Assembly: GCA_017938885.1 (NCBI GenBank)
Contig: JAGBAS010000022.1
Coordinates: 1 to 60,143 of the forward strand
Source: Clostridia bacterium
GTDB taxonomy: Bacteria > Bacillota > Clostridia > Oscillospirales > CAG-272
Direction: 5' to 3'
Length of the DNA stretch: 60,143 bases
The translations under genes were made by a program, and so were the position numbers. Of this stretch, positions 33,076 to 59,674 are shown in pieces; within the stretch, counting starts at the first letter, position 1; every line of letters begins with the position of its first letter. The notes under the pieces are model-generated. The model ran no database searches. It saw nothing but the letters and a program-made list of their open reading frames with translations, and was not told the origin of the DNA.

Positions 33076-33107
33076 AGCTGCATCCCTAAAACAGATGCAG
33101 CTTTTTT
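33076..33107 (+). terminator. intrinsic terminator ending the SPFH operon
   Basis: Stem AGCTGCATC (33076-33084) pairs with GATGCAGCT (33094-33102), followed by a T-run to 33107. Confidence 0.65.
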
Positions 33108-33268: not shown

Positions 33269-33297
33269 TTGACTTTTTTGCCGTTTGGATTTATAAT
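33269..33297 (+). promoter_or_regulatory. sigma-A-type promoter of the SNF2/giant-protein transcription unit
   Basis: TTGACT (33269-33274), 17-nt spacer, TATAAT (33292-33297), in an AT-rich intergenic region. Confidence 0.6.
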
Positions 33298-33331
33298 ATA
33301 AACTATATATTTGTATAATGTTGGTGAGAAC

Positions 33332-34507
33332 ATGATCAAAACCTTTTATCGAAAACAGTCTCAGGAGAGGACGTTTTTTCGGGCTGAAATGAAGATCCGC
33401 TCCATGGCCTACGGGAAAGGGATTCACGATGAGCTGTCGAAATGGCTGGAGCAGACAACGACCGCCTGGAATGATCCGAAAGAACCCTTTCTCCTGTCGG
33501 AAGAAGGACATTTCAGCGGAAATCCCGTGTGCCGTTGCCGTACCGAGTTCATGAAACCTGGGCAGTCTGAAAACGCCGTCCTGCTCAAGAGACGCAGTAA
33601 AGCCAGACAACGCCTGTGGTTTAACCGTTACCTGTACGAAATCGGGAAGGAAGGGGAGCTCATCCTGAACCAGACGAATACGGGCGTATTCCTTGGCTCC
33701 GAGCTTAAGGCCTGGGGGGCAACCGTGCTTTGGGAAGAAAAGAAACCGGCTTTTTACCTTTTGGTGATCGGAAAGCCCGTCGGCGAGTCGGATTCACGCC
33801 TCTCTGTCTATGCACTGCAAGAAAACGGCATCCCGAAAAGAGACCCCGTGGCCGGAGTCCCCATGAGCAATACCCTGGAGGCCAAAAGCCATCTCTGTTG
33901 CTTTGGCAGGCACGTCTTTACCGTCCATGATAACCATCTGGATTATTTCTATTTCTGTCCCGAGCAATCCGGTCTTGAAAATGTAGCCATAGAATCCGAT
34001 ACCCCCAACCATGAAAAGGAATGCTGTCAGAACGTGACCTCTGCCGTCGTTGCAGACCGGAACGGAAGGGTCTACTGGCAGTCCGGAAACCGCGTGTATT
34101 CCTTCCCGGTGGGATTCCCCCGCAGAATTGCTTACGTGGACGGCGGCCAGCAGTATACCCATTTGCGCATCCATACGTATCAGGATTCACTTTTTCTCTA
34201 CCGCGTAAACCGACTGAATCGCGACTATGAATGCATGGAATGCACCTTTACGGAGAGCGCACGGGGAGAAGAGGGTATTGAATGCCGCCTTTTCAACCGA
34301 GGAAGCGTGAGAAACGTGTTCTACTACGAGCAAAATCAAGAGACCTTTTACATCAAGCTACAGCCCAACGCCTATAAGGCAAGCCTGATTTGCCGAAGAG
34401 ACGGTGCCGAGCAGCTCCGCTCCTCCTTCGTAACCGAGGGGATTGAGGAGATCTTCTGCGATGACGGCTTTCTGTACGTTGGTACCTGCTTCGCTCGCGG
34501 AAGTTGA
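33332..34507 (+). CDS. hypothetical protein (orphan, likely beta-rich, Cys-containing)
   Basis: 391 aa from the ATG at 33332 (RBS GGTGAG). It has no TM segment or signal peptide, and I recognise no family. Confidence 0.55.
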   Translation: MIKTFYRKQSQERTFFRAEMKIRSMAYGKGIHDELSKWLEQTTTAWNDPKEPFLLSEEGHFSGNPVCRCRTEFMKPGQSENAVLLKRRSKARQRLWFNRYLYEIGKEGELILNQTNTGVFLGSELKAWGATVLWEEKKPAFYLLVIGKPVGESDSRLSVYALQENGIPKRDPVAGVPMSNTLEAKSHLCCFGRHVFTVHDNHLDYFYFCPEQSGLENVAIESDTPNHEKECCQNVTSAVVADRNGRVYWQSGNRVYSFPVGFPRRIAYVDGGQQYTHLRIHTYQDSLFLYRVNRLNRDYECMECTFTESARGEEGIECRLFNRGSVRNVFYYEQNQETFYIKLQPNAYKASLICRRDGAEQLRSSFVTEGIEEIFCDDGFLYVGTCFARGS

Positions 34508-34567
34508 AGCAAACGAAACAGATCGTTTAAAAATGAAAGATAAGTTCATGAACATGAGGAGTTCCGT

Positions 34568-37500
34568 ATGATTGATAAGAATGACGTCAAAATGCCGGTC
34601 CAGAAAAAGGACGAGCACATCAACCAAAGCAAGGATCAGATCGATCGCATTGAGGAGCTGCTCCGCCTGGTCAACGAGGCGGATAACCGCCAGGAGCTTC
34701 GACTGAAGCAGGATTATTACGCCAAGTTCCATTGGTTCGGTAAGCGCCTGGACAGCGAGGATCGTAAGAGTTATTTCTCTTACCAGGAGGAAGCAGTCTA
34801 CGATTTCGTGTTCAACCTGAACAAGAGCGGTATTCTGTCCGACCAGGTTGGTATGGGTAAGACCATTGAGGCAGGTATGATTATCAGTGAGCTGGCCAGC
34901 CGAAATGAGTTGCGTTCCCTGCTCATCATCGTTCCCAACGAGATCATGGCAAGAAAATGGGAATATGAGCTGAGCAGTAAGTTCGGTATCCAGAAACTGG
35001 TGACCGAGAACAGTCGAAAAGAAAAGATTGTCTATCCCGAGGCGCGTTCGGTAAAGAATTTCGACGAATTTGCCCGTCTGGTCTTTGACTGTATGATGAG
35101 CGAGAAATTCCGCTCCTACTATGAAAGCATTACCGAGGATTACACGGATTCCGACCGCATCCGTCCCGCCTACAGCTATATCCACCAGTATAAGAACAAC
35201 CCCGCCCATCCAGAAACCATGGCCGAGGTTCTTTCCCGTTTCCTGGCACAGGATATTGAGGAAACCGTGAAAATGATCAACGAGGGACTCATGGATCAGT
35301 ACGACGACGGCAGCGTTCAGGTCGTATTCGACGGCAAGAGCTTCTCGATCACCGGGACTGACTTCTCGGTTCCCTATACCTATGATGCAGATGGCGATAT
35401 CGCCCGCTTTATTCGCGGCCGCGTCATCCGTGATCTGGAAAGGGAGATCAATGTTTCCCGTTTCTTCAATATCTATCGCAATTTCTTGATGCATGAGCTC
35501 TGCGGTCTTCTCTCTCTGATCGGATACTACTTCATGACCATTCCCGAGGAAATGGAGTCCATCAGTAAGCGTATCACAAAGGAATACCCCATCCTCATCA
35601 TTCCCATCGCCTATTCGGATTATTCGGGTGACGAAGTCAAGCTGTCCCCCTTCCTCAACCGCGTGCTTCAGAATGAAGTTCGTAGCTATAAGCATGAATA
35701 TAATATCCAGACGGCAAACGGCATGACCGAGAGCGTCTACGAGCCCTACCGCGTCATCGACTTCTTCATCGATGTGGGCTACCAGACTCTCATCGTAGAC
35801 GAGGTGCACGATTACATCGATGCCGACAAGAAGATGAGCCGCAAGGAGTTCCACGCCAATAATGGCTACAGCGAGTATCCTTCTGAGACCTATAACCGCT
35901 ACGAGCTCTTCGATGACTACTATTTCGTTCCGAAGAACAGCCTCTACAAGAAACTTAAGGCGTTGGCCGATCAGGCAAACCGTAAGATCTTCCTGACCGC
36001 AACCCCCATTAAGTCGGATATGGTGGACTTTTACCTTCTGACCCTCTTGGCCAGTAATAAGGACTCCGAGGATTACCGCCGAATATCCGAGGTTCTTCAG
36101 GGCGGCTCGGGAATGCTGGCAGGCGATATGGTTGAGCAGACCATACACCGTATCTACGACTCCTTCAAGTCATGCGTGGAAACCGAAACAGGTCCCTACT
36201 TCTGTAGTTACTGCAACGAGTTCCTTCGCTTGGAGGAGCGTGACAGTGCCACCCGCGGCGATAAGCACGTCGAGCGGTACGTCTACCCCTACTTCAACAA
36301 CGATTATCTGAAGGCGAACGTAAACCATCCCGATAAGATCACCGAATACCTCAACAGCCATATCAGTTATATGTCGGTTGAGGAGATCGTCATGGAGCTG
36401 ATCCTCGCCTACATGGCTGAAACCCAGGAGAACGTGGATATTGTCTCGGCAATGAATCGCTTGATCCACCTTCTCGGCAGCGGCGCGGATTTCCTCCAGA
36501 CCCGTGTCATCTTCCGAGCCCTGCTCAACAACACCGTCAAGCTCCGCTTTGAGGAAGACTTCACCAAGGAGGACGGTCAGCCCATCAAGCGCATTCGTGA
36601 GTTGCTGGCCATCAACGAAGGCCCCCGTAAATGGCATAAGACCTACCGCAAGTACGGTATCCGCCATACCCGTCACCAGACCTATAACCTTGCCCAGTGC
36701 GACAAGCTGGAATGCCTCAATCAGAATAAGATCGATCGATTCCGTAATCTGCCTCTGTGGCCCCGTCGGAACGGCCGCGTCATCTATCTTTACCGTGACG
36801 ACGTATTCTTTGACAGCTTCCTGGACGTGCGTCGTCCCAGGCCGACCTTCGGAAATACCGATATCGTCATGAGTGATCTTCCTAATATTGATAAAATTGC
36901 CGGCGAAGATCATGAAAAGCAGGAGCGCTTCGATCATGCCGTTGATATTTTCCAGTACATCAACGATGCCATGAGCGGCGGCGACCCCATCAATCACGAG
37001 CCTCTCAGCCGTTTCTACGATGCCGTAGAGCTGGATGACGCCGGTATGGTCGATTTCAAGCTGACGATGATCAGCCGACTGATGGGAAGTCAGGGCTCCG
37101 ATCTTGGCTCCATCAAGGGAAAGGTCTTGCTCTTTGCCGAGCATGACCGCGAGAAGATCCTCGAATGGTTCCGTTATCAGAAGTGTGCTCCCCTGTTCGA
37201 CCCCAAGCAGGGCGATACGTTGGATCCCAAGAAGGAAGCGGAGTACGCTGAAAAATGGAGCAACTACCGAGCCCCGAGTGACATCAACCGAGATTGGGCC
37301 GTCACCGAGAGTGCCGAGGATATGGATCGCTTCAGCGGCAACCTCCTGGTCGTTATTGACCCCAAGCGTTATGAAAAGGGCGTTGACCTTCAGAAGGCCA
37401 ATACCATGATCAACTTCGATATCAATTACTGCCCTCTGAAGATGGAGCAGCGCATCGGCCGTATCGACCGTATCCGTCCTTCGGATCAGAACCAGCAGAT

Positions 37501-38479
37501 CGATATCATCTCCTTCGTACCCCTGAACAATATGAGCGGATACGTCATCAATTTCTTCGCCAATGAGCTCAAGATGTTCACCCAGTGGATGGGTGAGACC
37601 ACGGGTATCGTTTCGGTTCCCGATGAGGACACCCAGAATCGCAAGGGCGGCGAATCCGTTGCCTTTGAGGAAAAGGTGGAGGCTCTGGATAAATTCTACA
37701 CCGGCATTTACGATCTCTGCCGTATCGACGTTGATGAGAAAACCCGTAAGGCTCTGGCAAAGCAATTCGTGGAGACCTTCCGTACCAACGATTTCAGAAC
37801 CGATTCGGATTTCCGCTTCCTCCAGCAGTTCAAGAACAGCTTTGACAAGGCCTTCCGCAATTCGCTGTCCACCAAGCGTCAGGGCTACCGCGCAGGGAAG
37901 AGCAACGAGCGCGTTATGCGCTTCAATTGCACCAACGGTATCTTCGCAGATTGCGCCTCCGATAAGTGTGAGGGCTGCTCCAATCGGGAAAACTGCAACG
38001 ACAAACAGGGCATTATGCGCAATAAAGCCAAAGATTTCGTTGCGGCCGTGCAGAGCTTCTATAAGGACGGCGCAGAGTTCTATAAGAAGGAACTGACAGA
38101 TTTCAAGAACACCTATAAGAAGACGACCATTAACGATCCCGAGCTCCGTAAGGAGGTCGAAATGCAAGAGGAATGGCTGACGAGACGGCAGAGAAGCTTC
38201 GCCTCCGCCCAGGAGCAGTCCAAGAAGCTCATGGACAAGATGAAGCTTGAGCGTAAGGAGCCCGGCTCCTTCACCGTCCCCCTGGAATCCTTCGACGAGC
38301 TGTTTACCCCTATGAAGAAGCTCTACTGGGACGATACCGTCATGACCTACCTCCAGCACGTTCTCAAACGCTTCCACGATCAGTGCGACAGCGTGCTCAA
38401 GAGCGCGGCACTGTTTGAGAAATTCGTCAAGACCCTGGCCGTGGCAGATTTTATGAATAACATGGAAGGAAACGTATAA
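34568..38479 (+). CDS. SNF2-family (SF2) ATPase/helicase-like protein with two large insertions, a Cys4 knuckle and a charged helical tail
   Basis: Motif I DQVGMGKT (GMGKT at 34850-34864). Motif Ia LIIVPNE. Motif II DEVH (35798-35809). Motif III IFLTATP (~35987). Motif IV-like KVLLFAEH (~37121). Motifs V/VI NFDINYCP...QRIGRIDR (37448-37471). RBS GAGGAG. Confidence 0.85.
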   Translation: MIDKNDVKMPVQKKDEHINQSKDQIDRIEELLRLVNEADNRQELRLKQDYYAKFHWFGKRLDSEDRKSYFSYQEEAVYDFVFNLNKSGILSDQVGMGKTIEAGMIISELASRNELRSLLIIVPNEIMARKWEYELSSKFGIQKLVTENSRKEKIVYPEARSVKNFDEFARLVFDCMMSEKFRSYYESITEDYTDSDRIRPAYSYIHQYKNNPAHPETMAEVLSRFLAQDIEETVKMINEGLMDQYDDGSVQVVFDGKSFSITGTDFSVPYTYDADGDIARFIRGRVIRDLEREINVSRFFNIYRNFLMHELCGLLSLIGYYFMTIPEEMESISKRITKEYPILIIPIAYSDYSGDEVKLSPFLNRVLQNEVRSYKHEYNIQTANGMTESVYEPYRVIDFFIDVGYQTLIVDEVHDYIDADKKMSRKEFHANNGYSEYPSETYNRYELFDDYYFVPKNSLYKKLKALADQANRKIFLTATPIKSDMVDFYLLTLLASNKDSEDYRRISEVLQGGSGMLAGDMVEQTIHRIYDSFKSCVETETGPYFCSYCNEFLRLEERDSATRGDKHVERYVYPYFNNDYLKANVNHPDKITEYLNSHISYMSVEEIVMELILAYMAETQENVDIVSAMNRLIHLLGSGADFLQTRVIFRALLNNTVKLRFEEDFTKEDGQPIKRIRELLAINEGPRKWHKTYRKYGIRHTRHQTYNLAQCDKLECLNQNKIDRFRNLPLWPRRNGRVIYLYRDDVFFDSFLDVRRPRPTFGNTDIVMSDLPNIDKIAGEDHEKQERFDHAVDIFQYINDAMSGGDPINHEPLSRFYDAVELDDAGMVDFKLTMISRLMGSQGSDLGSIKGKVLLFAEHDREKILEWFRYQKCAPLFDPKQGDTLDPKKEAEYAEKWSNYRAPSDINRDWAVTESAEDMDRFSGNLLVVIDPKRYEKGVDLQKANTMINFDINYCPLKMEQRIGRIDRIRPSDQNQQIDIISFVPLNNMSGYVINFFANELKMFTQWMGETTGIVSVPDEDTQNRKGGESVAFEEKVEALDKFYTGIYDLCRIDVDEKTRKALAKQFVETFRTNDFRTDSDFRFLQQFKNSFDKAFRNSLSTKRQGYRAGKSNERVMRFNCTNGIFADCASDKCEGCSNRENCNDKQGIMRNKAKDFVAAVQSFYKDGAEFYKKELTDFKNTYKKTTINDPELRKEVEMQEEWLTRRQRSFASAQEQSKKLMDKMKLERKEPGSFTVPLESFDELFTPMKKLYWDDTVMTYLQHVLKRFHDQCDSVLKSAALFEKFVKTLAVADFMNNMEGNV

Positions 38480-41238: not shown

Positions 41239-41250
41239 CAGGGGGACCCA

Positions 41251-43230: not shown

Positions 43231-43244
43231 GAAGAGAGCGCAGA

Positions 43245-43296
43245 ATCCGAAAATGGAGCTGAAGACCTGTAAAAAGTCTTACAGAGATTTTCGGAT
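43245..43296 (+). other. intercistronic extended hairpin without U-tract
   Basis: ATCCGAAAAT (43245-43254) pairs with ATTTTCGGAT (43287-43296). The pair encloses an inner CTGTAA/TTACAG stem. Confidence 0.4.
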
Positions 43297-43359
43297 AGCC
43301 CTTCCAACAACATACGGAATCAAACCGATCAATGTGACCAATAGGAGTTAAGAGATATT

Positions 43360-51558: not shown

Positions 51559-51580
51559 GCGGCTTTTCAAAAGCTGCTCA

Positions 51581-51610
51581 GTGGGGTCGGCCGAAAAAGG
51601 CCGACCCCAC
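51581..51610 (+). other. GC-rich intercistronic hairpin (possible weak terminator or mRNA stabiliser)
   Basis: Perfect 12-bp stem GTGGGGTCGGCC paired with GGCCGACCCCAC, with loop GAAAAA. No T-run follows (CCTACAAG). Confidence 0.45.
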
Positions 51611-51636
51611 CCTACAAGAAAACGAGGTACGTAAGC

Positions 51637-52395
51637 ATGAGCGAAAATTCAAAAAGCCTGACCGTGAACAGTATCGGTATTTGCGTAGCGGCAACCACCG
51701 ATAAGAAAACGCCTCCCTGCATCATAGTCGCCTATTCCGTCGGTCAGACAGCAGAGGATATTCGCTTACTGGCCATGAATCTCCCCCGTAAGGGCCTATA
51801 CGGAAGGGGAGATTTTCTGAACGCGATCGCCAAGGCCGAAAAAGCACGCCAAGTGATTTACAAGGACTATAACTGTGAGGATAAGGATCTGTATATCTGC
51901 CGTCCCGCAGTCGGAGATACATATGAGATTATTCCGAGAGACGAAAGAGCCCAACGTTTCGGACAGGGCTTTGCCGAGATCGAAACGGCCGCTTTGAAAT
52001 TCGAGGTAGAGGAGCTCTCGGTTCATATCGGGAAAAAGCTTTCCTGTCGTTTCCTCTATCGGGTACAAGCCGAATATCCTGTTGACAGCTACGAGTACGC
52101 TACCGTCAACGCCTATAACGCCTGCCTTCTGGGACGAGTGTTTTCCCGCGAAGAGTTCCGCCTGGAAACGGGAGACGGAAAAAAAGCGAAATACGAGGTA
52201 CGTACTTCGGAGTCCAAATACGTGGATATGTCCACGCTCTACGTCCGTTCCGTCAAAAATTCCGAGCAGGGTGTGGTGGAGTACTACGTTACAGAGCCGC
52301 TTTTGGAGATCAACGGAGAGGATATGACCCGAAAAACCTACCAGATCATATACAAGAATATTTTGAAGGATTACAGTATTAACAGATTCGATTAA
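51637..52395 (+). CDS. hypothetical cytoplasmic protein (orphan)
   Basis: 252-aa ORF with a GAGG RBS, wedged between the two giant genes. It has no TM segment and I recognise no family. Confidence 0.55.
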   Translation: MSENSKSLTVNSIGICVAATTDKKTPPCIIVAYSVGQTAEDIRLLAMNLPRKGLYGRGDFLNAIAKAEKARQVIYKDYNCEDKDLYICRPAVGDTYEIIPRDERAQRFGQGFAEIETAALKFEVEELSVHIGKKLSCRFLYRVQAEYPVDSYEYATVNAYNACLLGRVFSREEFRLETGDGKKAKYEVRTSESKYVDMSTLYVRSVKNSEQGVVEYYVTEPLLEINGEDMTRKTYQIIYKNILKDYSINRFD

Positions 52396-52414
52396 AAGGG
52401 ATGGACAAAGCATC

Positions 52415-55400
52415 ATGAGTAGAAAAAAGAAAAACCCGAAAAATACCCCCGCAGAGCCCGCGCTTGAAACCGACGCGGATTATTCTGCACAGGAAACCGA
52501 AGCCACGGCAGGGGAGCAGGAAGAGGTCGTCTCCGAAGAGAGTACGTCATCCGATTTTGATTCGGTTGCCGAGACCCCAACGGCTGTTCCCGAGCCCGAT
52601 ATGAATTCCGGAGCGGAAGAAGCGGATAAGCCGGAAGAGACTGCCGAAGGCGTGGGACATGCGGAACAAGCTGAGGCTTCTGCGACGGAAAACACGATGG
52701 AGGCTACTGGAATACCCGATGTCACGCCCGCTTCTCAGGACGAGATTACTTCCGAAGAAGAGGTGTCCTCCGAGGAGCAAGGCTCTGTCGAGTCGCTTAC
52801 TGAGGGCGATATGGCTGCGTCAGAGCCGGAAGAAGCACAGGAAGAGCCTACGGAGGATTTACCCGAGCCGGAGCCCGAGGTGTACGTCGGCCCGAACGAT
52901 GATATGGTCTTTAGAGAGGATATTCATCTTGAGGAGATCCCCCCCGAAGAGCCCCTGCCTATCTCTGAGGCCGCCCGCTATTTGAACCGCCGCGTTCCCG
53001 GTGAGCTGAATAATTCCGCCATCATGTTGAATCGCGTGGGCTGTAATCTGGGTGACTGCAAAAAGAAGGATCGATACCTGGTTACGGACCGCTACGTTGT
53101 CCTTGAATACGGCTATCTTTCCCGTATCCCTCTCAGCATCCTGTGGCGGATCGCCCACGGGGAGGATGCTAAAGCCATCGAAGCCGAGCGAGCCAAGAAC
53201 GCAAAGAAAAAGAAGCGACACTACGGCTTGATGGATCCCGAGCATTCCCTGGAGATCACCTATACAGAGGCACAGTGGAGAGGGGATCTGGCGCGTCTGA
53301 CCGCGTATATTCACAAGAAGAAGGGCGAAGAAGAGAATCTTCCCGTTTGCCTGGATGATGTGTGGCTCCTCAGCGAATTCGATTTCCGTGCGGCTTTCCT
53401 GCACCGAGCTACCCAGGCGATCCGTCTGATCCAGTTGGCCATCCTGGCCGAGGCGCGGCAGAATCGTATTCTGGAGGAGACCTGGGAGAATATCCGTCAA
53501 TATAAGTACCGCGTCCAGCTGGAAAAATCCAGGGGTGGTATCTTCACCGAGGAGGATGCATACAGACTTCGTTGCCATGGTATCCGTTACCTGAACGATC
53601 TTCGCAAGCATACCGTCTACGAGATCAAAAATACGCTCATCGAGCACGATATGTGCCACGTGGTGGAGGAGATCAACGACGCATTCCGCGAGGATCTGGC
53701 CAGACGGCGGGATCGTCGCCTTCAGGTTGGGCCCTTCCTGTCGGGCTTCATAAATCTGATCGCAACGGGTGTCGTTGCTTACATGTATCAGTATACCCTC
53801 ATTAAGAACCAGCTCATGACCGTGGTTATCATAGCCCTGCTGGCTCTGTGGGCCATCACCATTCCGACCATCCTGTTTGCCGCGATCCGCGCCGTATACC
53901 GACGGCACACGCGCCGCAAGGATTACTACTATTTCAACCGTCCCGTCCGCATAACGACAGCACTGTATTCCCTTGCCTCCATATTCATTCTGCTGTCCTG
54001 CGTTGTGTTCTACGAGCGTTATGACGGATACGACAGCCAGTATTTTTACCGTGATCTTGAAGGCGGCAGCATCGCCATTGCCGGTCGATTCAACAAACAG
54101 ATGACCAGCTGCGAGATCCCTTCGTCCATTGACGGTAAGCCCGTCACCGAGGTGGATCTGTTCGCCTTCTACAACAGCCCCATCCACACCGTGACACTCC
54201 CCGAAAGCATTCAACGCGTGGACACCGGTGCATTCATGAACTGCTCTCAGCTCAAGAATGTAACTCTGAACCAGGGGCTGAGCGAGATTGGGAATCACGC
54301 TTTCCGCGAATGTTTACAACTGAATCGGATCGAGCTCCCGAGCTCTGTTACCTCCCTCGGAACCAATGCATTCCGAAATGCCGCACTCACCTCCATCGAT
54401 CTCAGCGTGACGCCTCTGACTGAGCTTCCCGAGGGTAGCTTCCGGGATTGCATCTATCTTACGGAGCTGATTGGTTTGGAGCAGATCACGGTGATCGGTG
54501 ATTACGCCTTCAACGGATGCCAAAGTCTTCCTGCGCTCTCCTTCTCCTCGGAGTTGGAGACCATAGGAGAGGGTGCTTTCGCATACTGCAACGGCATTAT
54601 GGAGCTGACCGTTCCCAACGGCGTTACCTCCATCGGTAAAAATGCCTTTGACTACTGTCAGAATCTCAGACGGATCACCCTGCCCTTCGGAGCCGTTTCC
54701 CCTACCGACGTGGATCACGGCTCTCTGAACGACATAGTCCATTTCGACAGCAAGGGCTTCCTCGTAACTTTGGTCTTTACGGGCAATACTGCGCCCGGCT
54801 CCAATGCGCTGAGGGGTATTGATTGGGTCGAAGCCATCATCCTGGAAGAGGGAATTACCGAGATCCATTCGAACGCGTTCAGCGGAAAGAAAAAACTCAA
54901 GAGCATATATCTGCCCTCGTCCCTGGAAAAGCTGGGTGATAACGCTCTGCGGGATTGCACCGCGCTGACTGAAATTTCGGGAGGGGAAAGCCTCCGAATC
55001 CTCGGCAAGAATGCCCTGCGCGGATGCGAAAAGCTGACCGAGGTTGGGCTTCCCGCGCTGGAGGAGATTGGCGAGAACGCTTTCCGCGATTGCACGGCAC
55101 TTTATAACCTGGAAGGATTGGCGAATGCGACAACCATCGGTGACAGTGCCTTCCGGGATTGCGTCAAGCTGAATCGGGTCAGCTTCTCTGAAAATCTGAC
55201 CGATATCGGTGCCGCCGCCTTCCGCGGATGCCACGCTCTGGTTGAGATTCGTGTTCCCTCCGGCGTTACCTCCATCGGGCTCGGGGCCTTTACGGATCTT
55301 CCCGCACTCAAGTCTGCTTCGGTTCCGTTTACCGGTACCAACCCCGAAAACAGTCTGGATATGCCCCTGTTCCTCATCCTGGATTGCAACGATAAGGATC

Positions 55401-57565
55401 GCGCAATCTCGCTTGAAATCACCGCTATGCAAACCCTGGAGCGCACCTGCTTCCGCGGATGCTCCTCTGTCTCGATCCTGACCGTCGGTGATACCTGTCA
55501 AACTTTAGAGGAAGCCGTATTCAAGAATACCTCCATCCGAGAGATCACGCTTCCCGAATCTCTCACGGCTATTCCGAAGGATGCATTCAAGAACTGCGAC
55601 AGCCTCACGACCGTAAAGGGCGGATTGGTTTCCGAAATCGGCGAATCTGCTTTTGAGAATTGTAAAAAGCTCGTAAGCGTTGCAGGTATCGCCACGGCTC
55701 AGGTTATTCAGGACAAAGCTTTCAAAGGCTGTTCTGTCCTGGAGAACGTAACCTTCAGCGAGGCACTTGAAAGTATCGGAAAGGAAGCATTCCGAGGATG
55801 CAGTAAGTTCACAGCGATCACCGTCCCGAAGGGCACGGCATATCTGGGTGAATCGGCCTTTGCCGAAACAACAGCGGTGAAGAGCATCACCGTTCCCTTT
55901 GCCGGTATGAATGCTGCGGGAGATCCTACCGGATCTCTTGGCGATGTGTTTGCCTGTGGCGACGGTGCTTCGGATGTCAGCGTCACGATTACCGTCATGA
56001 CCGATACGAAAGAGACCTCCTTCGCAGGCTGTACGGCCATTACGCGCATGACCATTGCCTCTCCCATGACGAGACTGGGAAGCGGAAGCTTTGCAGGACT
56101 TTCGGTTCAGGACGTAACCCTTCCCGATACCCTTACCGCCATCGGCTCCCGCGCCTTTGCGGATTGCGCTCATCTCAAGAGTATTTCCGGAACCGACAAC
56201 GTCGTGTCCTTGGAGGAATCTGCATTTTTCGGATGCCGCTCTCTGACTGCCTTTGACCTCACCAATGTCCAAAGCATCGGGAATACCTGCTTCGAAGGCT
56301 GTCCTTCTCTCGCCAATATCGGAGAACTCAAATCGGTCAATCTCATTGGCGCGAACGCTTTCAAGGACTGCTCCTCTCTGAAATCCATTATCCTGTCCGC
56401 TCCGCTGGAGCAGATTCCGGAATCCGCCTTTGCCGGTAGCGGCATAACCGAGATGGTACTGCCCGAAACGGTAACGGCCCTTGGCAAGTCCTCCTTCCGG
56501 AATTGTATTGCCTTGGTAAAGATCACTCTTCCCGCCGGCCTCAACAGCATTGGCGAGGAAGCTCTGCGCGGCTGTACTGCCCTCACGGAGATCAATACCG
56601 ACACCACGGCTCTGAACCGGATCGATGCATACGCATTTGCGGATTGCACGAGTCTGAGTACGTTGACACTACCCGTCACCGTAACCCGAATTCCCGAAGG
56701 TATGGCACAGAATTGCCGGAACCTGAGTCTTGCGGGCTTGGATCAGCTCCCGCTGACCGAAATCGGTGGCCATGCTTTCGAGAATTGCTCCTTCCTCAAT
56801 ATGGCACTCCTCCTGGGTGATGGACTGATGACCATTGGGGAAAAGGCCTTCTACGGATGCTCCGCCGTTTCTCTCTACGTTCCCGATTCTGTGAATTCCA
56901 TCGGTAGCTCGGCTTTCGATGCCTGCCCCAAGCTTGCAGAGGTGGTTCTGCCCTACGTGGGAAGCTCGGTAGATACTGTCGGGGCCGGTTACAGCCATGT
57001 ATTCGGTACCACAAAGGTGCAAAACCTAACACTGACCAACATGACGGTCATCGAAGACGATACCTTCAAGGGAGCAGAGAACAGCTTGAGAAGTCTTACC
57101 CTGAACGAAGGCGTGACCGAGATCCAAAAGAAGGCTTTCCGAAATTTCTCGGTGCTTTCCGAAATCACCCTTCCCGAGACGCTGACTCTCATCGGAGCCT
57201 CCGCCTTTGAGAATTGTACCTCTCTGTCTTCTGTCCGCATTCCTGCGGCCGTTGCCGAGATCCCCGCCAAGAGCTTCAAGAACTGCACAGGCCTCAAGAA
57301 GTTGGAGCTCGTTGAAGGAAATCTGACCGTTTTGGGATCGGAAGCCTTCAGGGGCTGTACCTCTCTGAAAGAAGTAACCTTCCCGACAGGGGTCGTTACC
57401 CTGGAGAGAAACACCTTCCGTGACTGTATCTCCCTGGTGGCCGTGACCTTCTCGGATACCATGACGGACGTTCACAAGAAAGCCTTCATGGGCTGTAATC
57501 CCGCAACCGTAAATATTCCCGAAAATCTGACATCTCAATACGCCGGGCTCTTCGAAAGCAAGTGA
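52415..57565 (+). CDS. giant (1716 aa) receptor-like membrane protein: acidic disordered N-terminus, ~280-aa helical cytoplasmic domain, ~3 TM, ~1150-aa BspA-type LRR ectodomain
   Basis: An E/S/T/A-rich tract covers aa 1-165. The TM block lies at about 53726-54020. It is followed by dozens of LRR_5-type units (IG..AF..C..L..I.LP..(L/V)..I). Confidence 0.85.
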   Translation: MSRKKKNPKNTPAEPALETDADYSAQETEATAGEQEEVVSEESTSSDFDSVAETPTAVPEPDMNSGAEEADKPEETAEGVGHAEQAEASATENTMEATGIPDVTPASQDEITSEEEVSSEEQGSVESLTEGDMAASEPEEAQEEPTEDLPEPEPEVYVGPNDDMVFREDIHLEEIPPEEPLPISEAARYLNRRVPGELNNSAIMLNRVGCNLGDCKKKDRYLVTDRYVVLEYGYLSRIPLSILWRIAHGEDAKAIEAERAKNAKKKKRHYGLMDPEHSLEITYTEAQWRGDLARLTAYIHKKKGEEENLPVCLDDVWLLSEFDFRAAFLHRATQAIRLIQLAILAEARQNRILEETWENIRQYKYRVQLEKSRGGIFTEEDAYRLRCHGIRYLNDLRKHTVYEIKNTLIEHDMCHVVEEINDAFREDLARRRDRRLQVGPFLSGFINLIATGVVAYMYQYTLIKNQLMTVVIIALLALWAITIPTILFAAIRAVYRRHTRRKDYYYFNRPVRITTALYSLASIFILLSCVVFYERYDGYDSQYFYRDLEGGSIAIAGRFNKQMTSCEIPSSIDGKPVTEVDLFAFYNSPIHTVTLPESIQRVDTGAFMNCSQLKNVTLNQGLSEIGNHAFRECLQLNRIELPSSVTSLGTNAFRNAALTSIDLSVTPLTELPEGSFRDCIYLTELIGLEQITVIGDYAFNGCQSLPALSFSSELETIGEGAFAYCNGIMELTVPNGVTSIGKNAFDYCQNLRRITLPFGAVSPTDVDHGSLNDIVHFDSKGFLVTLVFTGNTAPGSNALRGIDWVEAIILEEGITEIHSNAFSGKKKLKSIYLPSSLEKLGDNALRDCTALTEISGGESLRILGKNALRGCEKLTEVGLPALEEIGENAFRDCTALYNLEGLANATTIGDSAFRDCVKLNRVSFSENLTDIGAAAFRGCHALVEIRVPSGVTSIGLGAFTDLPALKSASVPFTGTNPENSLDMPLFLILDCNDKDRAISLEITAMQTLERTCFRGCSSVSILTVGDTCQTLEEAVFKNTSIREITLPESLTAIPKDAFKNCDSLTTVKGGLVSEIGESAFENCKKLVSVAGIATAQVIQDKAFKGCSVLENVTFSEALESIGKEAFRGCSKFTAITVPKGTAYLGESAFAETTAVKSITVPFAGMNAAGDPTGSLGDVFACGDGASDVSVTITVMTDTKETSFAGCTAITRMTIASPMTRLGSGSFAGLSVQDVTLPDTLTAIGSRAFADCAHLKSISGTDNVVSLEESAFFGCRSLTAFDLTNVQSIGNTCFEGCPSLANIGELKSVNLIGANAFKDCSSLKSIILSAPLEQIPESAFAGSGITEMVLPETVTALGKSSFRNCIALVKITLPAGLNSIGEEALRGCTALTEINTDTTALNRIDAYAFADCTSLSTLTLPVTVTRIPEGMAQNCRNLSLAGLDQLPLTEIGGHAFENCSFLNMALLLGDGLMTIGEKAFYGCSAVSLYVPDSVNSIGSSAFDACPKLAEVVLPYVGSSVDTVGAGYSHVFGTTKVQNLTLTNMTVIEDDTFKGAENSLRSLTLNEGVTEIQKKAFRNFSVLSEITLPETLTLIGASAFENCTSLSSVRIPAAVAEIPAKSFKNCTGLKKLELVEGNLTVLGSEAFRGCTSLKEVTFPTGVVTLERNTFRDCISLVAVTFSDTMTDVHKKAFMGCNPATVNIPENLTSQYAGLFESK
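54071..57520 (+). repeat. in-frame BspA-type leucine-rich-repeat array
   Basis: Recurrent ~23-25-aa units containing AF..C..L, seen throughout the translated ORF. Confidence 0.75.
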
Positions 57566-57587
57566 TGCATGGCCCTGCGGCGTTCGC

Positions 57588-57610
57588 CGGGGAGGGAACT
57601 ACCCTCCCCG
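57588..57610 (+). other. intercistronic hairpin without U-tract
   Basis: CGGGGAGGG (57588-57596) pairs with CCCTCCCCG (57602-57610), with a 5-nt loop. Confidence 0.4.
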
Positions 57611-57652
57611 AGAACCCTGAGCACCCAATCGATTACCGACAAGGAGACCGAA

Positions 57653-59539
57653 ATGATCTATACCTGCCCCAACTGCGGTGGCTACTTTGATGCAAAGCAA
57701 TTCAGGGCTACCGATGGTAAGCAAAATGCCGAAGCCAAATGTAAATACTGCGGCTCGACCTTCAATTTTAAATCCATCCATACGTCGCACGTCGTAAACG
57801 GATACAATTACCTGGCCGCCGGTGAGTACAGCGGTGCGTACCGCTCCTTCAGCTATGCGTTGGAGCTCACCAAGGACGAGAAAGGTGAGAGCATTCTGGA
57901 GCTTGCTTACGTGGACGCCTATCTCGGCCGTGCGCTGGCTCAGTTTGACGTACAGGTCGTATATGAGGAGGAGGTTGGCGGCGAGGAAGCACCGCCCGTC
58001 ATCATCTGTCATACAGCCCACAAGGAACGCTTCGAGGACTGCCCGGATTTTCAGAACGCCGTCTATCTGATTGGGAAGATCGCCAACAGCGGCCACAGAG
58101 CCCGTCAGGAAAAGCGTTTGCTGTATTATGCAGACTACATCGATGGTATCAAGGATATGTACGATAAGCTGGAGCGGGAGGGGAAGGAGTATCAGCTCTT
58201 CGTCGCCTATGAGGATCTGTCCAAGGATCGCGCCGAGGCTTATGTCGTCGCACAGAAGATCTGTAAGAGTATTCCGTCCAAGCATATCGACAGGATCTTT
58301 TGCCCCGATCCCGACGAGGCTGAGGTCAACATGATCCACTATGAAGCGAAGATCCTCTACGCTCTGAATCATTCCCAATGTATGCTGGCTCTCGTGGATC
58401 GGGACGTAGACAACCGTCTCATCGAAATGTACACGCAGTTCGACGAGATCCGTCGCCGTCCCGTCAATCGGCAAAAGGGCATGGGACTTGGCTTCGTGCG
58501 CTACAGCGGCCAATTCCAGCTCCATATCGGAGATCGAACCGTAACCGAGAATATTTTTTCGGATACCGATTCCAAGCGTATCAACAGCTTTGTACTGCGC
58601 GCTAACGGTATGACCGTTGACTTTGACTCTGACGAAGCTGAAGAAATCGACGGAGGAGGTCCCCCAAGTTTCATTATTGAGGATCTGATTGATGATTTAC
58701 CGGTGGGTACTGCTCCTCAATTTACCGATGAAAACCGCGTGATTTTCGGGAAATACCCCCAGAGCCGCGAGAACAGTCAGCTCGTCAAAAAGCATTTCTT
58801 CGATCGCTTCGGCCGCCCTTCCCCCGACGCTCCCGGCGAATGGTTGCCTTTATTCAAAGGGAAGAAGGATTCGATCCCCTATACCTGGTATGTGGAGGAC
58901 ACCGTAAACGATTCCCGTTACAGAGCCGTTTACTTCACCCGATACCGTGAGGTGTATGCCGTCAGCGAGAATTCTCCCAAGCCCGAGGTACAGCGCAAGA
59001 ACGATTACGTGCTCCGAGATATCCATGTCTTTAAGTACGAGCCTGTGATCTGGAACGTCATGAAGCGTTCTGAGGGTTATCCCGGAACCGCTAATCTGAT
59101 CGCCTCCATGGGCTTGGATGCCGTCTGCTTTAATCAAGCACCCTACGGCAATGAATTTGATTACGCGTCTCTCTCTCAATGGATGAACCGGGAAATGCTT
59201 GCCAATATGCTCAGCAGTGACGAGCTCAGCTGGCTCTATTCCCGCAACGGCCTGCATCTTCGCCTGTTGGATGCGGATATTGAGTTGGATTCTCCCGCCA
59301 TCCGAGAAAAAGTAAAGAACTACAATATCGGTGGCAGTGATTATTTCCGCTGTGTCGGCGGAAGCGTTCTTGAAAGGAACGTAAACGCTTACTGGGTCGA
59401 AAGTGACCGAGAAGTCCCGGCAGATCGAGCAGCCGTGATCTTTCCTTCGGTCGATGCGGAGGTTCGGGATATGCCCCTGGATTGTACCACCGTAGCCGTC
59501 GTTCCGACTCTGAAAATCCGTCTCCCCATCGAAGAATGA
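57653..59539 (+). CDS. cytoplasmic Zn-ribbon / TIR-like / DUF6273-like protein
   Basis: The ATG at 57653 is preceded by AAGGAG. The Zn ribbon reads CPNCGG...CKYCGS. The segment YQLFVAYEDLSKD...RIFCPD...HYEAKILYALNHSQCMLALV (~58185-58450) follows the TIR strand/helix pattern. The C-terminal FGKYPQ...VIWNV...SLSQWMN...YWVES...VVPTLKI (58738-59530) resembles DUF6273. Confidence 0.65.
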   Translation: MIYTCPNCGGYFDAKQFRATDGKQNAEAKCKYCGSTFNFKSIHTSHVVNGYNYLAAGEYSGAYRSFSYALELTKDEKGESILELAYVDAYLGRALAQFDVQVVYEEEVGGEEAPPVIICHTAHKERFEDCPDFQNAVYLIGKIANSGHRARQEKRLLYYADYIDGIKDMYDKLEREGKEYQLFVAYEDLSKDRAEAYVVAQKICKSIPSKHIDRIFCPDPDEAEVNMIHYEAKILYALNHSQCMLALVDRDVDNRLIEMYTQFDEIRRRPVNRQKGMGLGFVRYSGQFQLHIGDRTVTENIFSDTDSKRINSFVLRANGMTVDFDSDEAEEIDGGGPPSFIIEDLIDDLPVGTAPQFTDENRVIFGKYPQSRENSQLVKKHFFDRFGRPSPDAPGEWLPLFKGKKDSIPYTWYVEDTVNDSRYRAVYFTRYREVYAVSENSPKPEVQRKNDYVLRDIHVFKYEPVIWNVMKRSEGYPGTANLIASMGLDAVCFNQAPYGNEFDYASLSQWMNREMLANMLSSDELSWLYSRNGLHLRLLDADIELDSPAIREKVKNYNIGGSDYFRCVGGSVLERNVNAYWVESDREVPADRAAVIFPSVDAEVRDMPLDCTTVAVVPTLKIRLPIEE

Positions 59540-59546
59540 TTACCCC

Positions 59547-59583
59547 AAGACGCGCCTGCTGAGAAAGCCGGCGCGTCTTTTTT
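59547..59583 (+). terminator. intrinsic terminator ending the island
   Basis: Stem AAGACGCGCC (59547-59556) pairs with GGCGCGTCTT (59570-59579), followed by a T-run to 59583. Confidence 0.7.
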
Positions 59584-59645: not shown

Positions 59646-59674
59646 TTGACAAATTGAGACAAATTGTATATAAT
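59646..59674 (+). promoter_or_regulatory. consensus sigma-A promoter for the last (partial) gene
   Basis: TTGACA (59646-59651), 17-nt spacer, TATAAT (59669-59674). Confidence 0.55.

Follow-up and report, generated by a model that had tools for sequence, protein, structure and literature searches.

A rare gene cluster of uncultured gut Clostridia couples a predicted SNF2-family ATPase to two giant membrane proteins

The locus described here, 26 kb within a window of 60,143 nucleotides (the whole stretch of DNA analysed, contig JAGBAS010000022.1), is one copy, of type I and in reduced form, of an undescribed, vertically old and rare multi-gene system of uncultured gut Clostridia. Its invariant core consists of an SNF2 dsDNA-translocase-type ATPase predicted to be active, a predicted Zn-binding protein (p4) and two giant membrane proteins. 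We tentatively read the system as an envelope-anchored anti-phage or anti-MGE immune machine of Zorya-like or Toll-like logic, an assignment that we would place a little short of probable.

Results

Organization of the cluster

The ORF listing shows eight co-directional ORFs, p1 to p8, which span 26 kb as one operon-like unit with the following features:

33076..33107, + strand: terminator of the upstream unit, left boundary; 9-bp stem then UUUUUU; dG -18.0 kcal/mol, z -4.3
33269..33297, + strand: promoter candidate, sigma-70-like; TTGACT-17-TATAAT, 11/12 match
33332..34507, + strand: p1, 391-aa orphan cytoplasmic protein; ORF opens at TTG 33311
34568..38479, + strand: p2, SNF2-family ATPase of 1303 aa; large insertions, 4-Cys cluster at the C-terminus
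38479..41238, + strand: p3, 919-aa degenerate p2 paralogue lacking the ATPase motifs
41251..43230, + strand: p4, 659-aa Cys-rich (multi-Zn-ribbon) orphan without a family match
43360..51558, + strand: p5, 2732-aa giant; N-terminal 5-TM module and extracellular Ig/MBG repeat ectodomain
51556..51610, + strand: two adjacent GC-rich hairpins without U-tract in the p5–p6 gap; dG -45.5 kcal/mol, z -6.9
51637..52395, + strand: p6, orphan cytoplasmic protein of 252 aa, encoded between the giant genes
52415..57565, + strand: p7, giant of 1716 aa; N-terminus acidic and disordered, then a conserved cytoplasmic domain, 3 TM and an extracellular BspA-type LRR array
57653..59539, + strand: p8, 628-aa protein; Zn ribbon, helical TPR-like region, TIR-like domain, DUF6273 (C-type-lectin-like); ORF opens at 57569
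59547..59583, + strand: terminator, right boundary; 10-bp GC-rich stem then UUUUUU; dG -23.4, z -4.5

The gaps of 60, -1, 12, 129, 78, 19 and 87 nt given in the initial annotation are exact with p1 starting at ATG 33332 and p8 at ATG 57653. Both starts are backed by homologue alignments: the p1 homologues begin with MIKTFY, corresponding to ATG 33332, and AAGGAG lies 7 nt upstream of the p8 ATG. The two stem-plus-U-tract terminators that had been proposed as boundaries held up against shuffled sequences, none of 200 shuffles folding as well as the left one, and the right one is followed by a promoter of the next gene that matches the consensus at 12/12 positions. The near-consensus promoter is the top-scoring site within 32400-44000 (11.6 kb), but the number of promoter-like sites in this region is not above chance (15 versus 9.7+-3.4 in shuffles), and the site therefore counts by its position only. 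Hairpins without U-tracts had been noted in all three larger gaps; those at 51.6 kb are strong and the one at 57.6 kb is weaker (z -2.4), while the 43.3-kb gap folds no better than shuffles (z -1.2). The p5–p6 hairpins may act in attenuation or mRNA stability; in other loci, with the first in-frame start codon taken as the gene start, the length of this gap varies between -137 and 113 nt. Intergenic gaps in homologous loci are mostly below 30 nt, and we infer that p1 to p8 are co-transcribed.

Related loci and their distribution

About 20 divergent genomes, comprising 11 GTDB species loci together with Logan and ENA contigs, preserve the gene set, its order (p1-p2-p3-p4-p5-p6-p7(-p8)) and its strand wherever the contigs are long enough to show it. 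The host genomes range from 38 to 61% GC, the SNF2 proteins are 49-64% identical and form a deep star-like tree, and the flanks differ: H+-PPase, Trk and ECF transporter genes in this window, cysS/cysE in L008, lipid genes and leuS in L035. Every p3 or p4 homologue found, including those from an HMMER scan of 1.84 billion representative proteins, stands in a cluster with the giants wherever the sequence extends that far, which bears out the genetically coupled unit proposed at first. Neighbourhood and profile searches revealed neither p2–p4 trios that usually occur apart from the giants nor a described system to which the trio belongs.

The system is rare. The HMMER scan returned only 40 relatives of p4, and p4 is present in at least 13 of 185,579 species genomes, whose submitters labelled the carriers Christensenellaceae, Oscillospiraceae, Lachnospiraceae or Ruminococcus; no p4 turned up in 72,556 plasmids, 50,697 phage records or IMG/VR. 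None of the loci was seen in a defence island or beside integrases or known defence genes, the flanks being housekeeping genes, and this speaks against an immune role.

Two more distant versions, types II and III, keep a four-gene core of SNF2 ATPase, p4, 5-TM MBG giant and 3-TM LRR giant. Type II (L026, L030 and L031; GC 33-50%) has the order RuvB-like AAA+ protein, 200-aa protein (absent from L031), AAA(+AAA_lid_6) ATPase, Zn-ribbon trypsin-like protease, Zn-ribbon-TPR-TIR_2 protein, SNF2 ATPase, p4-like protein, MBG giant and LRR giant; L025 is a partial variant. The closest match of the trypsin-like protease is that of the defence-associated RT-Protease_XI (E 1e-19), and the AAA(+AAA_lid_6) ATPase, which has a weak TPR at its N-terminus, presumably resembles the chaperone ATPases of the CbbX, SpoVK or EccA type. 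In type III (L027-29) the order is SNF2 ATPase, p4-like protein, 3191-aa giant and LRR giant. Upstream of it lie two further surface proteins, one of 1690 aa with Ig repeats and one of 619 aa with a lipoprotein-type signal, and no TIR or RuvB-like gene is found within 10 kb upstream, a second point against an immune role. Accessory gene sets have been swapped between types around a fixed core, in a pattern of modular gain and loss.

The earlier statement that no recognisable nuclease is present holds for this window but not for its relatives, eight of which carry in front of p1 a gene (p0) for a RuvB-like AAA+ ATPase fused to a TnsA-like PD-ExK nuclease. Its Walker A and Walker B motifs and the PD-ExK residues E574, D590, E604 and K606 are invariant. 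p0 is missing in two separate branches of the tree, and the nuclease gene was lost in the lineage of this window.

The SNF2 pair and the orphan proteins

The assignment of p2 as an SNF2-type ATPase is borne out by Pfam, whose gathering scores it clears for SNF2-rel_dom (37.1 versus 24.9 bits) and Helicase_C (31.3 versus 23.5). Motifs I (GMGKT), II (DEVH), III (TATP) and VI (QRIGRIDR) are invariant and are found in types II and III too. The top profile matches are the defence SNF2 proteins DrmD (E 5.5e-28), DpdE (E 6.6e-22) and BrxH (E 6.3e-23), plus RapA, all covering the Walker A and motif V-VI blocks only, and the scores stay far under the equivalog cut-offs (DrmD 109 versus 610, DpdE 97.5 versus 500, RapA 64 versus 576 bits). 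ZorD matches weakly in the Walker A region only (E 4e-6). RapA is the nearest solved relative, the match being limited to some 55 residues around Walker A. PADLOC yields generic ATPase-motif matches only, which counts against an immune role.

p3 was correctly recognised as a dead paralogue of p2: the two families align with hhalign over 776 columns (Prob 99.9, E 7.7e-34; p2 261-1252 versus p3 38-870), and p3 has lost motifs I, II, III and VI, with DDVY in place of DEVH. Its start overlaps the p2 stop (TAATG), likewise in most loci.

Together with the SNF2 ATPase, p4 is the most conserved component (44-77% identity among type I loci). Eleven of its Cys residues are invariant in all three types, including those of CxxC, GCxxCxxxCxxC, CxCxE..WxYDE and CxxCG, and profile searches gave no family or PDB match. 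p1, p3, p4 and p6 are orphan families. p1 precedes the SNF2 gene in 11 related loci with 24-53% identity and matches nothing in Pfam, PADLOC, NCBIfam, PHROG or the PDB profiles. p6 has 36 homologue clusters of 226-286 aa, located between p5 and p7 wherever the contig is long enough; its AF2 model (pLDDT 90.9, pTM 0.91) has no fold match in the PDB (best E 0.05).

The giant proteins p5 and p7

p5 had been described as a 5-TM/LRR/MBG protein. The membrane segments and the MBG repeats stand (MBG_3 96.8 bits in 5 stretches, Pfam), whereas the LRR remains a weak hint (LRR_5 E 0.18). Its five hydrophobic segments, predicted from hydropathy and the positive-inside rule to run N-in/C-out, are conserved in homologues, and the orthologues are collinear with 31-70% identity. 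Within the TM module, the polar residues N63, Q66, R117, D119 and Q127 do not vary among types I-III; since polar intramembrane residues are kept in all types, we consider the module to be more than an anchor.

For p7, the description as an N-in/C-out LRR giant agrees with the Pfam result (LRR_5 729.8 bits, 11 stretches) and with a predicted 3-TM topology (436-454, 470-488 and 513-531) that fits hydropathy and is conserved in homologues. The RRRDRR before TM1 and the RRHTRRK between TM2 and TM3 predict that the N-terminus is inside and the LRRs outside. A YERYDGYD motif after TM3 is kept in 7/7 homologues examined (types I and II). The partial similarity of p7 to HupY/LrrG and Gli349 models stems from the LRRs.

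The ectodomains of both giants are collinear and moderately conserved, not hypervariable, and the classical role of giant MBG and BspA-LRR proteins is adhesion; both points weigh against an immune role. The DNA of the two genes (43360-57565) contains no tandem repeats and no recent repeat copies.

p8 and the TIR domains

The proposed Zn-ribbon/TIR-like/DUF6273-like composition of p8 (21 full-length homologue clusters, 5 of them carrying PF19789; AF2 pLDDT 84.7) was recovered from profiles and folds. The p8 family aligns with the type II Zn-TPR-TIR_2 protein in hhalign (Prob 95.9, E 5.5e-9), and the top-ranking local fold matches include the TIR of MyD88 (prob 0.96, TMt 0.53); the TIR-like domain has no direct Pfam TIR match, and its fold search gave no PDB match with E<1e-3. 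In Foldseek, phage DUF6273 proteins are matched by the domain at the C-terminus (E 5e-5, TMt 0.70). Because the conserved W..E motif is lost, the p8-type TIR-like domain is probably no NADase. The TIR proteins of type II clear the Pfam TIR_2 gathering score (32.8 and 28.4 versus 28 bits) and retain W and E, spaced as in the plant 'WCLDE' motif, which is catalytic.

Discussion

Comparison with known systems

As stated in the initial annotation, the cluster corresponds to no named system: PADLOC, NCBIfam and the searched literature gave no match as such for the eight proteins. The Zorya anti-phage system combines a ZorAB membrane complex, soluble ZorC and the SNF2-type nuclease ZorD (PMC11946911). 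The present system likewise encodes a putative envelope-reaching membrane complex with a cytoplasmic SNF2-family ATPase, plus a nuclease in most relatives, but it lacks a MotAB/ZorAB-like stator and ZorC, and its membrane parts are giant Ig/MBG (5-TM) and LRR (3-TM) proteins. In addition, the TIR(-like) protein, pseudo-SNF2, p4, p1 and p6 have no Zorya counterparts, and the hosts are Gram-positive-type Clostridia. p2 shares motifs I-VI of SNF2/SF2 ATPases with DISARM DrmD, Dpd DpdE, BREX BrxHI/II and RapA, while the locus has neither DrmA/B/C, a methylase, DpdA-K nor BrxA-L/PglX/Z. As with Thoeris ThsB, the operon includes a TIR(-like) protein, with TIR_2 and W..E in type II; there is, however, no ThsA-like effector, and the catalytic-type Glu is missing from the TIR-like domain of p8.

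The overall layout of an extracellular LRR array, a membrane passage and a cytoplasmic TIR recalls Toll-like receptors. Here two different polypeptides carry the LRRs and the TIR, and the LRRs are BspA-type (LRR_5), not TLR-type; the resemblance extends to architecture only and would have arisen by convergence. In their repeats (LRR_5 in 11 stretches in p7, MBG in 5 in p5), the giants are like the BspA-like LRR/MBG adhesins of Firmicutes and Bacteroidota. In contrast to these, they lack a signal peptide with an LPXTG, lipoprotein or T9SS anchor, possess conserved polytopic N-terminal modules, to which p7 adds a large cytoplasmic domain, and are obligately linked to the SNF2/p4 module. DUF6273 (C-type-lectin-like) domains occur in phage receptor-binding and DGR-target proteins (PMC10743442); the matching domain of p8 instead belongs to a Zn-ribbon/TIR-like cytoplasmic protein encoded in a cellular operon, and neither a reverse transcriptase nor a template repeat was noticed close by.

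Possible functions

The choice between defence and surface expression had been left undecided. The p0 nuclease and the TIR_2 protein, protease and AAA ATPase of type II tilt it towards a defence or conflict system. The immune reading draws on the linkage of the genes, the retention of the core in divergent types, the conflict-type partners and the SNF2 affinities, as well as on modular gain and loss, rarity, recognition-type modules (the extracellular LRR arrays and the C-type-lectin-like DUF6273 domain on the TIR-like protein) and the conserved polar TM residues. Against it stand, besides the points raised above, the absence of the nuclease gene from this window together with a TIR-like domain lacking the catalytic-type W..E, and the expected cost of a defence system that spans 26 kb and exports two giant proteins, for which we know of no precedent.

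The giants could instead be the functional product of a dedicated surface apparatus for adhesion, aggregation or a fibrillar layer, which we regard as unlikely, if worth serious thought. The SNF2 ATPase, pseudo-SNF2, p4, p1, p6 and p8 would then serve their expression, membrane insertion, assembly or regulation, be it as RapA-like help in transcribing 5-9-kb genes or, by analogy with SecA2/Asp, as an accessory-Sec-like ATPase module. In favour of this, MBG and BspA-type LRR arrays typically serve in surface binding, p2 has RapA as its nearest solved relative, type III brings extra surface proteins, the type II AAA(+AAA_lid_6) ATPase presumably is chaperone-like, the flanks are housekeeping genes and the ectodomains are under ordinary purifying selection. 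Such an apparatus leaves unexplained the partners with intact motifs, namely TIR_2, the PD-ExK-RuvB-like fusion and the trypsin-like protease; moreover, the short match to RapA falls far below its equivalog cut-off, and SNF2 ATPases are, to our knowledge, not movers of proteins.

We find it improbable that the locus encodes a machine that transfers DNA, whether by uptake, export or contact-dependent transfer, where the giants would make contact, perhaps as mating or aggregation adhesins, the polytopic modules would provide membrane passage, and the SNF2 and RuvB-like translocases with the nuclease would process and move dsDNA. Two dsDNA-translocase-type ATPases and a nuclease are indeed coupled to polytopic proteins with polar intramembrane residues. 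Yet Pfam, NCBIfam and PADLOC found no relaxase, coupling protein, VirB4-like ATPase or ComEC/ComEA-like protein among the eight proteins, the genes listed for related loci include none for a relaxase, coupling protein or VirB4-like ATPase, neither an integrase nor repeat boundaries were seen, p4 is missing from the plasmid, phage and IMG/VR collections, and the TIR and protease partners would be left unexplained.

Highly improbable, in our view, is a programmed recombination or diversification module in which the SNF2 ATPase (Rad54-like), RuvB-like ATPase and nuclease remodel the adjoining repeat-rich giant genes and vary the surface: these are recombination-type activities, but the giant genes lack tandem repeats and recent repeat copies, orthologues are collinear over their whole length, and the nuclease is dispensable in two lineages. 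Fortuitous adjacency of independent genes in this genome can be dismissed, for although the three 78-129 nt gaps with hairpins could in principle part transcription units, the comparative data contradict it, with order and strand kept in about 20 divergent genomes, the core in three deeply divergent types, matching gaps of 2-63 nt or otherwise small in other loci, and each p3 or p4 homologue found in such a cluster.

Under the immune reading, the surface arrays would sense or capture phage adsorption or contact, and the polytopic modules with the ~430-aa cytoplasmic part of p7 would relay the event across the membrane. The Zn-ribbon-TPR-TIR(-like) protein and p6 may serve as adaptors at the cytoplasmic face. 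We further infer that p2, p3 and p4 form a complex; this SNF2/pseudo-SNF2/p4 complex would work on incoming DNA near its entry site, joined in most relatives by the RuvB-like AAA+ ATPase-PD-ExK nuclease fusion. If the system is active in the bacterium of this window, the effector would be the SNF2 module itself.

Conservation of the p1-p8 gene set

The eight plus-strand genes p1 to p8 (window 33332-59539) almost certainly constitute a real, conserved system. Homologues of p3, the degenerate paralogue of the SNF2 ATPase p2, fell into only five clusters in a word-indexed search of 5.8 billion clusters, and 5/5 lie between an SNF2 gene and a gene like p4, the Cys-rich orphan. A giant MBG gene follows on 4/4 of their contigs that reach past p4, the 4.9-kb locus L004 ending within p4. 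The 252-aa orphan p6 has 36 homologue clusters, whose long contigs carry, in this order, p3-like, p4-like, giant, p6, LRR giant and p8-like genes, with the genes beyond them differing. Filter-free HMMER searching found only 40 relatives of p4 among 1.84 billion representative proteins (about 11 full-length 50%-identity clusters), and a pattern-based scan with the p4 alignment, covering one genome per GTDB species, yielded 13 loci, a lower bound, all from uncultured gut Clostridia (host names are those given by the submitters). The p4 family is thus rare, and was tied to the gene set in every case examined.

All GTDB loci of enough length show the order p1-p2-p3-p4-p5-p6-p7 on one strand. Among the type I relatives, that is, operons like that of the window, locus GC spans 38-61%; SNF2 identity across loci is 49-64%, and the SNF2 tree is deep and star-like. 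The initial annotation had proposed that the trio p2-p4 is genetically coupled to the giant genes, and this was borne out by a gene order kept in all sufficiently long relatives; fortuitous adjacency is excluded by such conservation across divergent loci.

Operon layout and signals

All eight ORFs claimed are present where they had been placed, and the reported gaps of 60, -1, 12, 129, 78, 19 and 87 nt are exact with the p1 and p8 starts listed below, both of which were set by homologue alignment. Gaps in related loci are mostly <30 nt, and the three larger gaps of the window (129 nt for p4-p5 at 43.3 kb, 78 nt for p5-p6 at 51.6 kb, 87 nt for p7-p8 at 57.6 kb) are not kept.

Features in and around the operon
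31275-33053, + strand: three ORFs of 248, 107 and 184 aa
33076-33107: terminator, hairpin plus U-tract, z -4.3
33269-33297: promoter-like site, TTGACT-17-TATAAT, 11/12
33332, + strand: p1 start, ATG (MIKTFY...)
36170-38377, - strand: antisense ORF, 735 aa
46198-49386, - strand: antisense ORF, 1062 aa
51556-51610: two adjacent GC-rich hairpins, dG -45.5 kcal/mol, z -6.9, no + strand U-tract
57653, + strand: p8 start, ATG (MIYTCPNCGG...), AAGGAG 7 nt upstream
59547-59583: terminator, hairpin plus U-tract, z -4.5
59646-59674: promoter, TTGACA-17-TATAAT, perfect 12/12
59744-60143: membrane-protein ORF, which leaves the window

Both terminators are real. The promoter-like site before p1 is the top one in 11.6 kb, but the number of promoter-like sites in the region is at chance level (15 observed, 9.7+-3.4 by chance), so this site has weight by position only. 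Hairpins lacking a U-tract had been described in all three larger gaps; they are found at 51.6 kb and, with moderate stability (z -2.4), at 57.6 kb, but the fold of the 43.3-kb gap is not better than that of shuffled sequences. The p5-p6 hairpins, which may serve transcription attenuation or mRNA stabilisation, lie in a gap that other loci do not conserve, and no Rfam family was found in 32000-60143. The two antisense ORFs listed and the many further long ones on the minus strand within the cluster (34358-57538) are unsupported as genes, overlapping conserved plus-strand genes throughout.

The three ORFs upstream of p1 were rejected as operon members: L012, the closest relative, is the only one to share them (68-82% identity, same order), and between them and p1 stand a terminator and a promoter. 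The 248- and 184-aa products are without Pfam family; the latter, the last of the three, carries a CxxC...CxxC Zn ribbon at its N-terminus and is hydrophobic at its C-terminus. Downstream, the membrane protein behind the perfect promoter is 67% identical to the product of the gene after p8 in the related locus L006, and this neighbour is conserved in the closest relatives only.

The SNF2 pair

Assignment of p2 to the SNF2 family (SF2) was based on an SNF2-related N-lobe and a Helicase_C domain above the Pfam gathering scores, together with motifs I, II (DExH), III and VI. Its description as an SNF2-type ATPase is upheld by SNF2-rel_dom at 37.1 (gathering score 24.9) and Helicase_C at 31.3 (23.5), and GMGKT, DEVH, TATP and QRIGRIDR are invariant among 12 homologues and also in the distant operon types II and III. 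The protein stands out by its large insertions and by a four-Cys cluster at the C-terminus. Its top profile matches are the defence SNF2s DrmD, DpdE and BrxH, and also RapA, all of them far under the equivalog cut-offs and limited to the blocks of Walker A and motifs V-VI. Direct BLASTP of p2 against p3 was marginal (E 3e-7), so profile-profile comparison was needed, and it confirmed p3 as a dead paralogue of p2 (Prob 99.9, E 7.7e-34, 776 columns): the N-terminal Walker A part is missing, DEVH has become DDVY and motif VI is lost.

The giant surface proteins

In p5 (2732 aa), five N-terminal hydrophobic segments, the number that had been proposed, have a predicted N-in/C-out topology and precede an ectodomain of about 2,500 aa of Ig/MBG type. 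Its MBG repeats were likewise recovered (MBG_3 at 96.8 bits, above the gathering score, in 5 stretches), but the LRRs also attributed to it gave no more than a weak match (E 0.18). Within the 5-TM module (residues 1-200, window 43360-43950) the following polar residues are invariant in all three operon types.

Invariant polar residues of the p5 membrane module
N63 and Q66: in TM2
R117-x-D119: at the start of TM4
Q127: inside TM4

Because of this invariance the module appears to be more than an anchor, which suggests a signalling or conducting role.

The predicted layout of the LRR giant p7 (1716 aa) begins with an acidic, disordered N-terminus and a conserved cytoplasmic region; three TM segments then lead to an extracellular LRR_5 array. 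Its repeats are of the BspA type, as annotated (LRR_5 at 729.8 bits, 11 stretches), and the charges RRRDRR and RRHTRRK flanking its TM segments place the N-terminus inside. The genes of p5 and p7 contain no DNA tandem repeats, and the ectodomains are collinear among orthologues and not hypervariable.

The orphan proteins

Eleven Cys residues of p4, in CxxC-type motifs, are invariant across all operon types, and the protein carries the signature C.C.E..W.YDE. No family or PDB relative of p4 was found, and p4, p1 and p8 gave at most Zn-finger noise against PDB profiles. The predicted model of p6 is confident (pLDDT 90.9), with no Foldseek match in the PDB. RNase H/PIWI-like matches of p6 were disregarded as weak and non-significant, and p6 lacks an invariant acidic triad.

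The TIR-like protein p8

The model of p8 (628 aa; pLDDT 84.7) comprises a Zn ribbon, a helical TPR-like region, a flavodoxin-like domain and a C-terminal beta-rich domain. In the whole-chain Foldseek search of the PDB nothing was found at E<1e-3, the multi-domain model diluting the scores. The best local matches of the flavodoxin-like domain include MyD88 TIR (prob 0.96, TMt 0.53, E 0.08), TIR-STING, ThsB (BcThsB, weak, prob 0.66) and nucleoside deoxyribosyltransferases, none of them significant in this whole-chain search. A TIR assignment was judged by a direct TIR_2 profile match, a flavodoxin-like TIR fold and a conserved W..E (catalytic Glu). There is no direct match of p8 to Pfam TIR_2, but its family aligns over Zn ribbon, TPR and TIR (Prob 95.9, E 5.5e-9) to a protein of the type II locus L026 that passes TIR_2 (32.8 against 28), so that p8 is tied to TIR_2 by transitive homology. 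Members of the p8 family lack the W..E motif. The TIR-like label is therefore best taken as one of descent, and p8 is probably non-catalytic.

The C-terminus was rightly called DUF6273-like: Foldseek aligns it with DUF6273 proteins of phages (E 5e-5, prob 1.00, TMt 0.70), and PF19789 is found in the precomputed annotation of five p8 homologue clusters (P0051-P0055), though the window's p8 has no direct match to this Pfam family. DUF6273 is reported to be C-type-lectin-like and to occur in phage receptor-binding and DGR-target proteins (PMC10743442).

The additional component p0 and two further operon types

Eight type I loci, L013 (118-2295), L014, L015, L017, L018, L022, L023 and L024, contain an extra first gene, p0, which in L013 encodes 725 aa and ends 4 nt before p1. 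Its product is a RuvB-like AAA+ ATPase (RuvB_N, AAA_lid_4, RuvB_C) fused to a TnsA-like endonuclease domain, with invariant Walker A, Walker B and PD-ExK residues. Neither the window nor L012, L019 or L020 has the gene, and on the SNF2 tree it is missing from two separate branches; it is probably ancestral and was lost in the lineage of the window. The earlier statement that no recognisable nuclease is present thus holds for the window, but not for the eight type I relatives with the PD-ExK fusion.

Distant p4 relatives (22-31% identity) reveal two more operon types: type II in L026 (1-21953), L030 and L031, with GC of 33-50% and L025 as a variant whose TIR gene is divergently oriented, and type III in L027 (1-22307), L028 and L029.

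Gene order of operon types II and III
Type II, first part: RuvB-like AAA+, 200-aa protein, AAA(+AAA_lid_6), Zn-ribbon trypsin-like protease
Type II, second part: Zn-ribbon-TPR-TIR_2, SNF2, p4-like, MBG giant, LRR giant
Type III: 1690-aa Ig-repeat protein, 619-aa lipoprotein-type-signal protein, 1472-aa SNF2, 768-aa p4-like, 3191-aa giant, 1852-aa LRR giant

Type II has no p1, p3 or p6, and its 200-aa protein, missing from L031, is not homologous to p6. The AAA(+AAA_lid_6) ATPase we take to be CbbX/SpoVK-like. The Zn-ribbon-TPR-TIR_2 proteins, of about 930 aa and ending in a TM segment, score above the Pfam gathering threshold for TIR_2, and their W and E are spaced as in the catalytic motif of plant and bacterial TIR NADases. 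Neither TIR nor nuclease was found in type III within the sequence in reach. Comparison of the three types leaves SNF2, p4, the 5-TM giant and the LRR giant as the invariant core.

Comparison with known systems

In PADLOC, NCBIfam, Pfam and PHROGs, the eight proteins, p0 and the proteins of types II and III gave only generic ATPase, protease or repeat matches and no named system, consistent with the first impression that the operon matches none; p5 and p7 had no PADLOC match at all. No description of the gene set was found in the open-access literature searched. As far as these databases and this literature show, the system is undescribed.

Assignment to DISARM, Dpd, RapA, Thoeris or Zorya was rejected each time. 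DISARM consists of a DrmD equivalog with DrmA helicase, DrmB (DUF1998) and either DrmC (PLD) or a methylase; the DrmD model NF038317 scored 109 bits against a cut-off of 610, and the other seven proteins gave no DrmA, DrmB, DrmC or DrmM match. The Dpd system of 7-deazaguanine DNA modification and restriction (DpdE equivalog with DpdA, DpdB, DpdC and further Dpd genes) is rejected likewise, with DpdE NF041062 at 97.5 bits against 500 and no other Dpd match. RapA, the RNA-polymerase recycling factor, is recognised by its NCBIfam equivalog and N-terminal Tudor-like and KOW-like domains; NF003426 scored 64 bits against 576, and the PDB RapA match covers profile positions 89-143 only. For Thoeris, which pairs a ThsB TIR protein with a ThsA effector (SIR2, or TM with SLOG/Macro), PADLOC matched neither ThsA nor ThsB.

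Zorya combines the MotAB-like stator pair ZorA/ZorB with ZorC/ZorD or ZorE. No protein matched ZorA, ZorB or ZorC, and ZorD matched p2 residues 47-139 only (E 4e-6). In Zorya a membrane complex recruits a soluble SNF2-type nuclease for local degradation of phage DNA (PMC11946911), and it is the nearest mechanistic analogue of the p1-p8 system, though not one to which p1-p8 belong. Toll-like receptors join an LRR ectodomain, a single TM and a cytoplasmic TIR in one polypeptide, whereas here p7, with 3 TM, bears the LRRs and another protein, p8, the TIR-like domain, so the likeness is one of layout only.

Genomic setting

Upstream of the operon, 33 kb of the window are given to ordinary chromosomal genes, encoding a histidine kinase, GH84 hydrolase, amidase, flavodiiron protein, H+-PPase, TrkHA and ECF-S component. 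The flavodiiron-type protein (22577-24367) has four modules (ODP/metallo-beta-lactamase, flavodoxin, flavin reductase and rubredoxin-like domains) and belongs to the usual equipment of anaerobes for detoxifying oxygen or NO; it is unrelated to the operon. The neighbours of other loci include cysS/cysE, lipid-metabolism genes, leuS and an aminotransferase. Cargo of a mobile element, plasmid or phage was looked for as integrase, relaxase or phage genes nearby and as presence in plasmid, phage or viral collections. No integrase, relaxase, phage or known defence gene was seen near the cluster in the window or the flanks of related loci, and p4 is absent from plasmid collections, phage collections and IMG/VR. 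With housekeeping flanks and a cluster GC like that of the genome (0.532 against 0.543 in the rest of the window), this origin was rejected.

Possible function and significance

We tentatively favour an envelope-anchored immune system, a reading that sequence features suggest. It draws on recurrent conflict-system hallmarks with intact active sites (TIR_2, the nuclease-fused AAA+ translocase and the Zn-ribbon trypsin-like protease), on an SNF2 ATPase nearest to defence-type SNF2s, on accessory genes swapped or lost around a fixed core, on a rare distribution in hosts of very different GC, and on LRR and lectin-like modules as recognition devices. Against it stand the housekeeping flanks, the reduced copy in the window and type III operons having no TIR or nuclease in reach, as well as the collinear ectodomains without hypervariability and giant genes without DNA repeats.

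A specific form of the immune reading, possible but somewhat doubtful, would be a bacterial surface-receptor pathway. Giant extracellular LRR and Ig/MBG arrays would sense phage adsorption or foreign-cell contact, and the conserved polytopic membrane modules would relay the signal to the cytoplasmic Zn-ribbon-TPR-TIR adaptor, which would license the destruction of DNA, where it enters, by the SNF2 and RuvB-like-nuclease motors. If true, this would combine convergent prokaryotic Toll-like-receptor logic with a Zorya-like arm of local DNA degradation.

Instead of immunity, the operon could encode an apparatus of giant adhesins served by a cytoplasmic module of its own, which we regard as unlikely. 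A DNA-transfer machine seems distinctly improbable, and a recombination or diversification module deserves hardly any credence.

If immune, the system would be the first bacterial case of huge extracellular LRR/Ig-type arrays sensing for a cytoplasmic TIR and DNA-motor response, and the known ties of bacterial to eukaryotic innate immunity (TIR, LRR) would reach beyond the cytoplasm, out to the cell surface. Should it be a surface apparatus, giant envelope proteins would depend on an SNF2 ATPase, its pseudo-enzyme paralogue and a Zn-rich partner, for which there is no precedent. Under either reading, four protein families (p1, p3, p4 and p6) are newly defined, as is a 5-TM module whose polar intramembrane residues are invariant, and comparison of the three operon types yields clear testable hypotheses.
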